A DNA stretch of 64,000 nt from Planctomycetota bacterium. Lineage in GTDB: Bacteria; Planctomycetota; Planctomycetia; Pirellulales; Pirellulaceae. Positions 47,035 through 58,469 of this stretch are shown piece by piece. The notes under the pieces were generated by a model, which was not told where the DNA came from, searched no databases, and was given only the letters and a program-made list of their open reading frames with translations. The stretch is from NCBI GenBank assembly GCA_003671195.1, contig QWPJ01000140.1:1329-65328 (forward strand), given 5' to 3'. Both the position numbers and the translations under genes were made by a program. Position 1 is the stretch's first letter, and every line of letters begins with the position of its first letter.

Positions 47035-47065
47035 CTCCGTGCCCTCTGTGCCTCTGTGTTCCAAA
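47035..47065 (+). repeat. Solo arm of the GxxExxY-associated repeat
   Basis: CTCCGTGCCCTCTGTGCCTCTGTGTTCCAAA matches the array R arm. Confidence 0.8.
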
Positions 47066-52908: not shown

Positions 52909-54246
52909 CTACTCGCTTTGAGAGGGCGCATAATACTCGATCATCCGCTCGATCGCTTCTTGGCAGACGACACAAAATTGGAATGGCTCAAGTCCATCGC
53001 CCATCGCACAGGACCTCTGCGGACGGTACATCCCAGTTCGCAAATAACCGCCCCCCTCGAATGCTCCAACCACAGGAGCCTGCCCTTGGCTCTGACCAGA
53101 AAAATCCTTCGGCGTCGGTAATGGAACCTCCTGGCTCAACAGGGGCCTCCATTTGATGTTCTCACGATCCAACTCCCGTGTGATATTCGGCTCGACCGGC
53201 TCGACTCCCTCTGGATAGAGATCGCTGTAAGTCACCGCGCCGATGTATTCGTCCGCAAGGTAGGCCAGCGAGTGTGCGAATTCATGCAAAAAAACCGCTT
53301 CGCTCCGTGGATCGTCCACCGTTGTGACACAGTAGTCCAAACAGATAGCCCCCCCACCGTATCTCTTCGAGTTGACCAACACGACGATGGTGTCATAAGG
53401 AACCTGTGCCGCGTACCGCTTGAGCGCATGACCATCCTCGGTCAACAAGTAACGGTCGATCCCCAAACTGTTGAACGAAGCGTTCAACGCACTGTTGCGA
53501 TACACTCGTTTATCCGGCTCGTCGACTCCCGACTCGTAGGAATCTCGAAACACCCCAACGACGTTCATCCTAGCTCGGTGCTTCCTAAAAGGCTCATGCT
53601 CGAACATGAACTGCGTCATGCGTTGGGCATCGGCCTGAAACTTCTCCTGTTCGCTTGCTGTGTACCCTTCCGCCAAAAAAACCAGATCCAATCGATCTTT
53701 AGGTTCTCCGGTCTTGTGCAACTCGAACACTGCCCCACGTTGATCCGCCGATTCGCGAAGAATGCCTCGATCCGACGTCTTGATTTCCTCACTCCAAAGC
53801 GTAGCCCAACGGTTGTCCTTGAGTCGTTCGAGAATCTCGATCCGAAACCTCGCTTTGGGTTTAGGGATTCGTACCGAGATCGGAACCGATCGCCACTTGC
53901 CCTGCGCCGCAGGGGGAGTCGTCGCATACTCGCTCAATAGCGTATCGAAACCGTACGAATAGATCAGCTTATCGCTTGCCTGATCGTATACCCGGACGGC
54001 ATTCTTACCGTAAGGGAACGGAAAAACCAGTTGCTTGCGTGGCCCCGGCCAACTCGACTCCTGCACCACTGGCCCCTGAACCACTTTGCTCTCAGACTTC
54101 TTTCCGAATAGAAAGAACTCAAAACGCAACGCCTGATCCTGAAAATACGTATCGAAGTCGACTTGCTCCTGCGCCTGCGACGCACAGCAAGTCAGGGCCG
54201 AGCAGATCGCGAACACCGATAACAACATTCTTATTCTTAATTGCAT
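52909..54246 (-). CDS. Peptidase M64 (IgA peptidase-like)
   Basis: DLVFLAEGYT, YGGG, HEFAHSLAYLADEY, GAFEGG, FCVVC. Confidence 0.9.
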   Translation of the reverse strand: MQLRIRMLLSVFAICSALTCCASQAQEQVDFDTYFQDQALRFEFFLFGKKSESKVVQGPVVQESSWPGPRKQLVFPFPYGKNAVRVYDQASDKLIYSYGFDTLLSEYATTPPAAQGKWRSVPISVRIPKPKARFRIEILERLKDNRWATLWSEEIKTSDRGILRESADQRGAVFELHKTGEPKDRLDLVFLAEGYTASEQEKFQADAQRMTQFMFEHEPFRKHRARMNVVGVFRDSYESGVDEPDKRVYRNSALNASFNSLGIDRYLLTEDGHALKRYAAQVPYDTIVVLVNSKRYGGGAICLDYCVTTVDDPRSEAVFLHEFAHSLAYLADEYIGAVTYSDLYPEGVEPVEPNITRELDRENIKWRPLLSQEVPLPTPKDFSGQSQGQAPVVGAFEGGGYLRTGMYRPQRSCAMGDGLEPFQFCVVCQEAIERMIEYYAPSQSE

Positions 54247-54334
54247 TCGCGTCTGTTTTCCATTCCTCGAAGACCAAGCCACCATCGATTCGCCACACCA
54301 AACATTCTAGCGACTCTCAGCGCGATCCCTCCCC

Positions 54335-54724
54335 CTCCGTGCCCTCTGTGCCTCCGTGTTTCAAAACCCTTTTTAAAACACAGAGGCACAAAGTCCACAG
54401 AGTTTCTTACAAGAGCCTTTCCCCAAACCCCGAGAATCCAATCCGGCTCGGGGGCCCCCCTTCTGTATCTTTTCCCCCCTCTCTATCCCCTCCCTCTGCT
54501 TCTTTCCTCCCCTCTCCGTGCCCTCTGTGCCTCCGTGTTTCAAAACCCTTAAAACACAGAGGCACAAAGTCCACAGAGTTTCCTACAAGTGCCTTTACCC
54601 AAGCCCCGAGAATCCAATCCGGCTTGGGGCACCCCTTCTGTATCTTTTCCCCCCCTCCCTATCCCCTCCCTCTGCTTCTTTCCTACCTCTCAGTGCCCTC
54701 TGTGCCTCCGTGTTTCAAAACCCT
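54335..54724. repeat. Tandem array of ~175-180-bp IR-bounded units, left block
   Basis: R arms at 54335, 54514, 54689; L arms at 54375, 54551. Confidence 0.95.
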
Positions 54725-54741
54725 GCATTTCCGGGAGTCCA

Positions 54742-55119
54742 TTAGTATCCATGGATCACCCTCCGGACCCCATCGGCCAGTTTTACCTCATGAAAATTGA
54801 TCAGCAGTCCCAACCTCATCTTCAGCAAGCGCAAATGAGACAATACTTGAGCTTCATCTACAGGATGGAGTGCCGACTTGGCCTTCAATTCCACGACGAT
54901 AGATTCATTGACAATCAGATCGGCCCGGAAACCGCATTCAAGTTTGATATCGTCGTAAACCAGCGGAACCGGATGCTCCTTGATGACCCGAAAACCACGC
55001 TTGTTGAGCTCATAAGCCAAACAAACTCGGTAGGCAGATTCCAGTAGACCTGGTCCCAAGCGTCGATGCACTTCGATAGCAGCTCCGATGATCGAGTGGC
55101 TCAGTTCGTTCATCTCCAT
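54742..55119 (-). CDS. GxxExxY protein (PD-(D/E)XK nuclease superfamily)
   Basis: IIGAAIEVHRRLGPGLLESAY, RADLIV...VVELKA, GLLINF; AAGGA upstream of the ATG. Confidence 0.95.
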   Translation of the reverse strand: MEMNELSHSIIGAAIEVHRRLGPGLLESAYRVCLAYELNKRGFRVIKEHPVPLVYDDIKLECGFRADLIVNESIVVELKAKSALHPVDEAQVLSHLRLLKMRLGLLINFHEVKLADGVRRVIHGY

Positions 55120-55137
55120 GGACGAGTTCCTTTTTTT

Positions 55138-55504
55138 GAAGCACAGAGGCAGAGGAAACCGCAGCATTTCCCTACTGGAGTCTCCCGCCAACCCTACGAG
55201 TCCAATCCGGCTTGGGCAACCCCCCTTCTGTGTCTTTTTCCCCTCCCTATCCCCTCTATCCCCTCCCTCTGCTTCTTTCCTACCTCTCCGTGCCCTCTGT
55301 GCCTCTGTGTTTCAAAACCCTTAAAACACAGAGGCACAAAGTCCACAGAGTTTCTTACAAGAGCCTTTCCCCAAACCCCGAGAATCCAATCCGGCTTGGG
55401 GCACCCCCTTCTATATCTTTTCCCCCTCCCTATCCCCTCTATCCCCTCCCTCTGCTTCTTTCCTCCCCTCTCCGTGTCCTCTGTGCCTCTGTGTTTCAAA
55501 ACCC
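55138..55504. repeat. Tandem array, right block
   Basis: Degenerate L arm at 55138, R arm 55286, L arm 55323, R arm 55470. Confidence 0.95.
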
Positions 55505-56404
55505 TTTCAAAACCACAAACGGAAACACTTCCGGGATATGAGAATCCCAAACCCCATGTGGACTCAAAGCCCAGCCCCCCGAGTCCTTGGGATTCGACGG
55601 ATCCTTGTTCTGATTGAACCTTGAGAAATCCACACGCCAGATATCTCCAGCCTTCGGTGGCAGATTCCGAGGCTCGGACAGATCGAGCATCGCAAGATCC
55701 TTCCAAGGCACAGCCACCTCAACGGTCCAACCCTTGTCCTTATCGGATGGGTCATTGAGCGTTCCATCGACATGCACGGCAGCTTGAATCGACTTGAGAT
55801 CCCAGTCGAGAAATGCCCATCGAAGGCCCCTAGGGTGCTTGGTGAATCCTACTCCGTTGAAGACTTGGGACTGCACATTGGACTTCGTCCGATCGAATTC
55901 AGGCCACCGAGCGATCCCGGATTTTTCATAAGCCGACTGCCAGACGAACAGTCCATCGTAGATAGTTCCATGCGCGTTGATCTCGAACTCATAGTATCCA
56001 TCCTGACCCGCGATGAAAAACTCCACGTCGTTGTCTTGGTAGATCGGATCGTCCTGCTTGGTGAACTTGGCCGTCACGTTGGGCTCCTCGATTCGGTAGC
56101 CAATGTACAGATTTTTCTCATCCCAAAGGACCGAAACGTGCGTCTTGAGATGGGTCGGTTGGCCACTGACAAGATCGACGAAGCTTTCCGAGAGACCAAC
56201 GCGGGTCCAATCCGGCTCATCGAGCTTGCCATCGATACGCATCGGTTCGCGGACCTGCTGTGCCTCGATTTTGCGTATCGCCGCAGATTCAACCGGCGGG
56301 AATCCAACGGACTCTTGGGCCAACCCACACGCCCCTTCAAGCACCAACGCCAACGCGATTGCGACGATCCCGATCGACCAAAAGCGACCAATGAACATTT
56401 GCAT
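55496..56404 (-). CDS. Carbohydrate-binding family 9-like protein
   Basis: IDGKLDEPDW, LWDEKNLYIG, DNDVEFFI, YYEFEINA.GT, WTVEVAVPW, WRVDFSR. Confidence 0.88.
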   Translation of the reverse strand: MQMFIGRFWSIGIVAIALALVLEGACGLAQESVGFPPVESAAIRKIEAQQVREPMRIDGKLDEPDWTRVGLSESFVDLVSGQPTHLKTHVSVLWDEKNLYIGYRIEEPNVTAKFTKQDDPIYQDNDVEFFIAGQDGYYEFEINAHGTIYDGLFVWQSAYEKSGIARWPEFDRTKSNVQSQVFNGVGFTKHPRGLRWAFLDWDLKSIQAAVHVDGTLNDPSDKDKGWTVEVAVPWKDLAMLDLSEPRNLPPKAGDIWRVDFSRFNQNKDPSNPKDSGGWALSPHGVWDSHIPEVFPFVVLKGF

Positions 56405-58380: not shown

Positions 58381-58388
58381 GTGTGCCT

Positions 58389-58469
58389 CCACCGTCTGGC
58401 GACAGGTGGCTACGTTCAACCCGTAGCCATCCTCTGCTCCTTTCTGTGTCCTCTGTGCCTCTGTGTTTC
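58389..58469. repeat. Composite REP site: CCACCGTCTGGCGAC(A)GGTGGCTAC hairpin plus a solo GxxExxY-type arm
   Basis: Hairpins at 58389-58428; CTGTGTCCTCTGTGCCTCTGTGTTTC at 58444-58469. Confidence 0.65.

Follow-up and report, generated by a model that had tools for sequence, protein, structure and literature searches.

The closest described parallels to the locus reported here are systems in which a small gene is paired with repeats of its own. Ssn nucleases are accompanied by NTS/SRM repeats (Chenal et al., 2025; PMC11893778), and SsnA has been shown both to cleave single-stranded DNA and to affect transformation (PMC11893778), whereas the function of GxxExxY proteins, the subject of this report, is predicted only. 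For repetitive extragenic palindromic (REP) sequences, a bias toward tandem and convergent intergenic regions has been reported (PMC3733652), the same bias that was found here for the repeats of a GxxExxY gene. We analysed a stretch of 64,000 nucleotides (the window; contig QWPJ01000140.1, positions 1,329 to 65,328) from a Pirellula-like metagenome-assembled genome (MAG; 89.6% complete, 252 contigs, 4.75 Mb). In this window, a GxxExxY gene (54742–55119, minus strand) lies among inverted repeat arms, in the gap between a peptidase M64 gene and a CBM9-domain gene. Its family, PF13366/TIGR04256, is very common and has no known function.

An earlier note on this DNA, made from the sequence alone, had proposed that the gene and the arms belong together. 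This proposal has held up well: it is close to certain that gene and arms are co-inherited as one cassette, and the short word repeated in the arms tracks the protein phylogeny and is not the same from one paralogue to another within a genome.

Arm words and protein lineages

The association of gene and arms was evaluated at 80 loci with relatives of the gene (44–98% identity) from Planctomycetota, Acidobacteriota, Ignavibacteriota, Bacteroidota, Chloroflexota, Verrucomicrobiota and others. Arms were called by a simple two-unit pattern within 200 bp of the gene, and windows of the same shape from the same loci served as controls. Arms flanked both sides in 51 of 76 genes and in none of 1228 control windows, and they stood on either side in 69 of 80 genes and in 33 of 1228 control windows, which bears out the enrichment of arms beside GxxExxY genes that the earlier note had named as a check. 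The layout was hairpin–gene–hairpin in Pirellulaceae and arm–gene–arm in most other phyla. In the literature searched on GxxExxY, PDDEXK_3, TIGR02436 and PDDEXK with inverted repeats, GxxExxY arms are not described.

The arm word was then read against the protein tree. Genes with CGC(A/G)GAG arms formed a single clade of 24 rows, nested in the clade of CACAGAG-armed genes, and the tree required 29 changes of word, compared with at least 44 in 200 label shuffles; since relatives share labels, this result shows co-inheritance and not co-evolution. The assembly holds three PF13366 genes with three different words, namely CACAGAG (the window gene), CGCAAAG at 8-nt spacing (C86) and CGCGAAG/CTTAGCG (C138), and the C86 and C138 paralogues are both bracketed by inverted arrays of their own word. 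Moreover, C86 clusters with a CGCAAAG-armed gene of another genus, and C138 with a gene from a Chloroflexota MAG whose arms read CGCGAAG. Paralogue-specific words were also found within complete genomes, four in G024 and three in G019. By sequence comparison, the heptamer word was thus shown to be specific to the protein lineage and not to the host. Residue 33 is V in CAC-armed proteins and K or A in CGC-armed proteins; it is only a lead, because the switch occurred once on the protein tree.

Arms of the CACAGAG family, ~28–35 nt long, occupy 65 sites in 38 loci of this genome, against one cognate gene, which answers the genome-wide count of arms against gene copies that the earlier note had suggested. 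The dispersed forms are solo arms, hairpins of ~70 nt (one subfamily with a common loop) and further tandem arrays, whose periods are 119 and 174. The CGCAAAG word, counted in its pattern of 8-nt spacing, has 106 sites. The two abundant arm families, of ~55–70 and ~106 sites, correspond to two resident paralogues. In addition, five RAYT-like loci (REP-associated tyrosine transposases, PF01797; C59, C164, C224, C206 and C211) carry five distinct REP families and never the CACAGAG arm. With a REP family for each of these five pairs, the genome hosts at least seven separate gene–repeat pairs. The parallel with RAYT/REP systems drawn in the earlier note is therefore apt, because each RAYT gene here carries other REPs and none carries this arm. 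The gaps that hold arm loci were convergent, tandem and divergent in 28, 29 and 3 of 60 cases, compared with ~13, 30 and 16 expected from intergenic length, so the arms prefer convergent and tandem gaps, that is, 3'-proximal intergenic DNA, and shun divergent promoter regions. The two arm families co-occur in composite elements: nested hairpins at G000:C142:2780-2900 and C173:27540-27680 have CGCAAAG-type arms around a CACAGAG-type hairpin.

The conservation of the arms was assessed in 46 hairpins adjoining genes of the CAC/CGC clade. At the window locus, each arm consists of three CAC(A/G)GAG heptamers at 9-nt spacing, inverted between the two arms, and starts with AAAC(A/G)C. The heptamer cores were nearly invariant across genomes, and core positions matched between L and R arms in 91–100% of cases except for one variable base per heptamer (39–65%). 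At spacer positions 10, 18 and 19, by comparison, the match was 35%, against 38% for randomly paired arms, and L and R arms differ systematically, position 18 being G in most L arms and A in most R-arm complements. Over the same divergence, the synonymous sites of the gene are saturated (proportion of synonymous differences, pS, 0.75–0.9) and the nonsynonymous divergence (dN) is ~0.1. Because the word is kept despite synonymous saturation while the spacers are not complementary, selection holds the word and not merely the pairing. One cell can contain several such words, and whatever reads them should therefore be specific to the paralogue; the encoded protein would be the obvious candidate for this role.

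The gene product and the array at the window locus

The gene encodes 125 amino acids, with its ATG at 55119–55117, its stop codon at 54744–54742 and AAGGAA 7 nt upstream of the ATG. The product matched PF13366 (E = 7e-39; 133 bits, curated cut-off 22) and TIGR04256 (E = 8e-41; 139 bits, curated cut-off 35), and it carries both the GxxExxY motif and the D...ExK signature of GxxExxY/PDDEXK_3 proteins. G25, E28, Y31, D68, E78 and K80 were invariant across 30 homologues. Judged by its residues, the product is a predicted minimal PD-(D/E)XK nuclease in which E28, D68, E78 and K80 are intact. The AlphaFold2 model was confident (predicted local distance difference test score, pLDDT, 93.7) and showed an alpha-alpha-beta-sheet-alpha core, whose closest solved folds were Cas4, lambda-type exonuclease and Hjc, all at weak similarity (template modelling score, TM, 0.45–0.55). 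A PDB sequence search with the protein returned no match, and PADLOC returned a weak Cas4 match alone (E = 0.006).

Three sister MAGs (85–95% nucleotide identity) have the GxxExxY gene at the same locus, and the ratio of nonsynonymous to synonymous substitution rates (dN/dS) among the sister genomes was 0.04–0.19. The gene is therefore vertically kept and under purifying selection. RNA contigs from the metatranscriptomes of two studies cover only 54707–55165 of the window, that is, the gene with a reach into both arms; these data being contigs, the lack of cover elsewhere in the window is no sign of silence, and neither transcript ends nor expression level can be read from them. A sigma-70 promoter scan gave no promoter. 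No intrinsic-terminator features were found at the arms, the terminator-like matches lying off them, and Rfam returned sub-threshold hairpin look-alikes of microRNA families and nothing else.

The M64–CBM9 gap contains repeats over 1.2 kb. Both the sequence and a repeat finder placed R arms at 54335, 54514, 54689, 55286 and 55470, each made of the 9-mer CTCYGTGCC three times in tandem and ending in GTGTTTCAAAACCC. The L arms, which begin at 54375, 54551 and 55323, are imperfect complements of the R arms; a fourth, degenerate one lies at 55134–55154. The alternation of five R arms with three L arms plus one degenerate copy, as first noticed, is therefore correct. An 18-nt arm core was found at 10 sites in the window at up to two mismatches, compared with none from shuffles. 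The R4–L4 junction forms the perfect 15-bp stem (55298–55312 with 55324–55338) and 11-nt loop that had been proposed for it, and its fold as DNA was confirmed at −18.5 kcal/mol on the plus strand (z = −7.7) and −23.9 kcal/mol on the minus strand (z = −9.3). From R3 to the degenerate L arm the distance is 410 bp, and the claim that a complete GxxExxY gene lies within this junction was verified by its intact open reading frame (54742–55119, minus strand), profile matches and catalytic residues.

The array comprises four units (A, B*, C and D) and one solo arm, with the gene between B* and C. The units are 83–92% identical to unit A, the mean column identity of their alignment is 89%, and Tandem Repeats Finder (TRF) gave a period of 176. 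Constant repeats with unique spacers, which define clustered regularly interspaced short palindromic repeats (CRISPR), are not what the array holds; its interiors are near-identical copies, in agreement with the earlier reading that this is not CRISPR. The ~110-nt interior has no other copy in the 4.75-Mb assembly, and only the first ~28 nt, the arm, were matched elsewhere. Since the interior is private to this locus, the ~180-bp units represent a local tandem duplication and not dispersed copies, and the idea that they are amplified non-autonomous copies was abandoned. Dispersed hairpins read L–loop–R with AAACAC outermost, so the natural unit here is L–interior–R, and on this reading the gene sits between two units (hairpin–gene–hairpin). 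It is equally valid to describe the gene as lying at the centre of an R–L palindrome.

Unit A (55321–55506, minus strand) contains the L4 arm (55323–55350), an interior and the R5 arm (55470–55504). Unit B* (55132–55322, minus strand) contains the degenerate L arm (55134–55154), an interior and the R4 arm (55286–55320), and holds the 5' leader of the gene. Directly past the stop codon of the gene lies unit C (54549–54725, minus strand), with the L2 arm (54551–54578), an interior and the R3 arm (54689–54723). It is followed by unit D (54373–54550, minus strand), with the L1 arm (54375–54402), a ~110-nt interior that is purine-rich on the minus strand and carries a small CCCCGAG/CTCGGGG hairpin, and the R2 arm (54514–54548). 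The solo arm R1 (54335–54369, plus strand), three tandem CTCYGTGCC copies with a GTTTCAAAACCC tail, closes the array at its M64 end. At the other end, TRF detected the 11-mer TTTCAAAACCC in duplicate (55494–55514, plus strand); it belongs to the arm tail, and the stop codon of the CBM9 gene (55496–55498, minus strand) falls within this tail. The neighbours are the CBM9-domain gene upstream (55496–56404, minus strand) and the peptidase M64 gene downstream (52909–54285, minus strand). A solo R-type arm 3 kb from the array (58442–58468, plus strand) adjoins a different, REP-like hairpin, CCACCGTCTGGCGACAGGTGG, at 58385–58440, of which exact 30-nt copies occur throughout all three sister genomes.

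The soundness of the array was considered in view of the source, a MAG of 252 contigs in which arms are often at contig ends. An artefact of short-read binning would also fit the short-read contigs of two further studies, which break at every arm and never span the array. These same contigs reproduced pieces of the array, and a 587-nt contig over the gene and unit B* was identical in both studies. The sequence occurs in lake populations, in 14 runs. In addition, four independent assemblies hold the locus: all three sister MAGs have unit B* upstream of the gene, and the numbers of units or bare arms on either side vary among them and this genome, being related but different. The units, moreover, carry point changes and indels that set them apart. 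On these grounds the array is real, with a unit count as assembled from short-read data, and an assembly artefact is highly improbable. One 140-nt metagenome contig joins 54648 (unit C) to 55423 (unit A) and skips the gene; it may represent a haplotype without the gene or simply one hybrid unit in a longer array, and it was not counted as evidence.

Stability, mobility and the role of the arms

The CACAGAG arm is present in 28 of 81 family genomes, in a patchy distribution, with top counts of 59, 50 and 38 and none in a complete genome of the same genus. At least three arms occur in each genome that has a CAC-clade gene. G024, a complete genome, has its three CAC-type arms all at the gene, and the 51 CGCAAAG arms of G036, also complete, agree with those around that genome's GxxExxY gene. 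The genome-level correlation of arm abundance with a close cognate gene was mixed and is not taken as support. In a distant genome of the same genus, CBM9 and M64 lie ~150 bp apart with nothing between them, and the last residues of CBM9 differ. The empty M64–CBM9 site that the earlier note had told us to look for was therefore seen in one same-genus genome, and a clean filled/empty pair was not found among the sister genomes. Neither this genome nor the sister genomes have a second copy of the cognate gene.

Several changes at or near arms were inspected as candidate insertions and rejected. A solo R-type arm 7 kb from the array (47044, within 47035–47065, plus strand) is present in two of the four genomes, G000 and G112, and missing from the other two, G113 and G111, and its boundaries are too untidy for a clean insertion. 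A G112 arm opposite a 6.9-kb G000 segment proved to be part of a complex indel, and two gene copies in G077 share more than 230 bp of flank, indicating a segmental duplicate or a strain variant instead of transposition. The changes that were seen are local: besides the unit numbers, locus L010 shows a tandem duplication of a host gene tail together with a hairpin, and purine-rich stretches beside arms grow and shrink. As a separate observation, two direct copies of a CACAGAG hairpin at G000:C154:29150-30480 bracket one full-length YhcG/DUF1016 nuclease gene, and in a sister genome (L148, G112:C76:54200-69200) the same hairpin pair brackets a 14-kb type I restriction-modification island containing HsdR, HsdS, HsdM, AAA_15 with GmrSD_N, AAA_13, Bro-N and a DUF1016 fragment.

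A transposon that actively moves by cut-and-paste or copy-out, with the GxxExxY nuclease as transposase and the gene-less arm pairs as MITEs (miniature inverted-repeat transposable elements), would agree with the inverted multi-site ends, with gene-less derivatives that outnumber the gene, with the patchy distribution, including the complete same-genus genome that has none and the empty CBM9–M64 site in another, and with truncated gene fragments in several genomes. Related cassettes inside hsdM and Rpn-like genes also speak for it. Against this, the cognate gene is single-copy under strong purifying selection at a stable location, no target-site duplication was seen, and the 180-bp units are not dispersed; what is dispersed shares the arms alone, mostly at orthologous sites in the sisters. 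The G077 copies are a larger segmental duplicate and not a hop, and the same design is common to genes that encode no nuclease. We consider a transposon quite unlikely. Nothing seen here supports active transposition, and the autonomous mobile unit proposed in the earlier note is unproven, with no target-site duplication, second gene copy or clean filled/empty pair.

The flanks of some of these cassettes were also read by hand. Upstream of L020 and L021, hand translation suggests that CGCAGAG-armed cassettes interrupt the frames of type I methylase genes (hsdM), after the NPP motif in L020, where ~110 codons are apparently missing, and after the DPA of motif I in L021. In L174 and L175 (G075), what looks by eye like an Rpn/YhgA-like gene encloses a GxxExxY cassette with CACGGAG 8-mer arms, and its two copies have the cassette at one and the same position.

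PD-(D/E)XK enzymes are commonly dimers acting on palindromes. A homing-type gene could be envisaged, whose nuclease would cut intact arm palindromes, either R–L junctions or short hairpins, the gene-centred copy being immune and copied into the cut site by repair through arm homology. In every case the gene is at an inverted repeat's centre, and many intact gene-less palindromes offer potential targets, yet there is one gene copy despite ~38 candidate target loci, which are gene-less throughout the four sister genomes, and such targets would mean that the chromosome cuts itself. On balance, we judge homing very unlikely.

We tentatively favour a nuclease–repeat pair, in which the heptamer arrays, both those beside the gene and those scattered over the genome without it, are recognised by the GxxExxY protein, and breaks at the arms stimulate recombination and slippage. 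The protein, probably as an oligomer, would recognise the heptamer arrays and nick or cut the arms, either as duplex or as extruded or single-stranded hairpins. Breaks at arms would promote recombination and slippage between them, and could account for the gain and loss of units at this locus, for variable cargo between two arm copies and for a slow seeding of gene-less arms. As the pair is stable across sister species and the gene is kept by selection, it behaves as a domesticated partner, in the manner of RAYT/REPIN and Ssn/NTS, and not as a jumping transposon.

Several findings weigh against the nuclease–repeat pair. Support for the binding or cutting of arms by the protein is correlative throughout, and the protein is small and single-domain, without an obvious DNA-reading module. 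About 30 of 40 arm loci in two sister genomes coincide with arm sites here, the remaining loci lying in sister regions without a matching flank in this genome, and the sister-genome comparison gave no clean filled/empty pair or target-site duplication. Furthermore, 12 genomes have 2–50 CACAGAG arms and no CAC-clade gene in the assembly, and 8–99 arms without a cognate gene in the assembly were counted in the incomplete MAGs G054, G038, G017, G058 and G041, among which G017 and G058 have 73–99 CGCAAAG arms and no gene bearing them. These orphan-arm genomes, although incomplete MAGs, weaken a strict dependence of the arms on the gene. Finally, genes of the PF05635 family, which have no nuclease fold, carry the same design of inverted short-tandem-repeat arms. 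In one orphan-arm genome, G054 (L081-L084; 50 CACAGAG arms, no cognate gene), R–L palindromes were seen inside composite repeats of 250–540 bp that also hold another widespread repeat and contain no open reading frame with a family match.

PF05635 is a four-helix-bundle family that was first found in the intervening sequences of 23S rRNA. In this bacterial family, an inverted-repeat score of at least 20 was reached at 16 of 29 PF05635 loci, compared with 1 of 243 controls. Because these genes share the arm design, the architecture is not tied to PD-(D/E)XK chemistry; either the nucleases and the four-helix-bundle proteins each read the arms of their genes, or the arms have a role shared by such cassettes, for example as an RNA stem. 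The PF05635 arms (G000:C187:4850-5350; L177-L206) are inverted arrays of tandem repeats 6–8 nt long, with a different word for each gene, GAGTAC in this genome. Several PF05635 genes (L190, L194, L195, L196, L198, L202) apparently lie between tRNA-like sequences that the arms abut; these sequences were judged by eye and resemble tRNA gene clusters.

The intervening sequences of rRNA are excised by RNase III. By analogy, the arms could act in RNA as a long stem that bounds an expression cassette, cut by an RNase III-type enzyme or else stabilising or terminating the transcript, so that the guest gene is expressed and insulated; the gene-less hairpins would then be relics of gene loss or independent REP-like 3' elements. 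The recurrence of the design around four-helix-bundle genes fits such a cassette, as do the preference for convergent and tandem over divergent gaps (28/29/3 of 60), the better fold of the gene-sense strand (−23.9 vs. −18.5 kcal/mol), a small surplus of sense-strand G.U pairs (83 vs. 60) and the RNA contigs that cover the gene and reach into both arms. Pairing alone, however, leaves unexplained why heptamers are retained exactly across genera while synonymous sites saturate, why spacers are no more complementary than chance with L and R identities staying distinct, and why one cell holds paralogue-specific words and 50–100 gene-less copies of one word. The G.U excess is also weak, and the arms lack intrinsic-terminator features. 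An RNA-level role of this kind is rather unlikely in our estimate.

A broader form of the nuclease–repeat pair can also be formulated, according to which the very large GxxExxY family consists of sequence-specific nucleases, each matched to its own arm word, and gene and arms together form a new minimal cassette, mobile or recombination-promoting, that spreads gene-less arms, the four-helix-bundle genes doing likewise with a non-nuclease binder. As a whole we regard this extension as unlikely.

Comparison with known systems

Within-genome cognate pairs with the RAYT genes as an internal control, the conservation of the word and not the pairing, the four-genome stability test, the locus-private 180-bp units and the parallel arm design of four-helix-bundle genes are new. 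If each protein binds or cuts its own array, PF13366/TIGR04256 would offer many natural nuclease–site pairs, as Ssn did for single-stranded DNA, and one class of repeats scattered in the genomes of Planctomycetota and further phyla would be explained; if recognition proves false, the arms would be left as RNA or REP-like elements. To judge from the arm design of the four-helix-bundle genes, small 'self-flanked' genes may form a wider class.

Like the 23S rRNA intervening sequences with a PF05635 reading frame, the locus places a small open reading frame within inverted repeats, but the element lies outside rRNA, between two protein genes and not in an rRNA helix, and encodes a different protein family. 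With insertion sequences and their MITEs, and with the multi-site ends of Mu and Tn7, it shares inverted multi-site ends and gene-less derivatives that outnumber the gene. In contrast to these elements, it has no recognised transposase domain, no target-site duplication and no identical or near-identical dispersed copies, only arms being shared.

The likeness to REP/REPIN–RAYT systems and to arrays of bacterial interspersed mosaic elements (BIMEs) is closer: a single-copy gene is flanked by cognate repeats, and repeat doublets form hairpins (PMC3116915; PMC3733652). As in BIMEs, the tandem arrays have arms in alternation with linkers, some short and some long, and, as with RAYT genes, many gene-less extragenic copies occur, often as inverted doublets, and several independent pairs share one genome, which here includes five RAYT–REP pairs. 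The gene itself is a PF13366 member and not a Y1 (HUH) tyrosine transposase, and the arms are tandem heptamers and not palindromes of 20–40 bp with a GTAG or CGTC tag. Excision intermediates of REPINs have been seen in population data, whereas none were seen here.

The Ssn/NTS pairs resemble the locus in having a small single-domain nuclease gene with its own hairpin-forming repeats of 20–50 nt on both sides (PMC11893778), many gene-less copies in the genome, many pairs each with its own specificity, and repeats that are mostly extragenic and bracket variable genes. They differ in fold, which is GIY-YIG there and PD-(D/E)XK here, and in the repeats, one semi-palindrome with an upstream tag there and 7-mer arrays at 8–9-nt spacing here. 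Since the locus encodes neither the GIY-YIG enzyme that defines Ssn/NTS nor the transposase that defines RAYT/REP, it works like both and is a member of neither.

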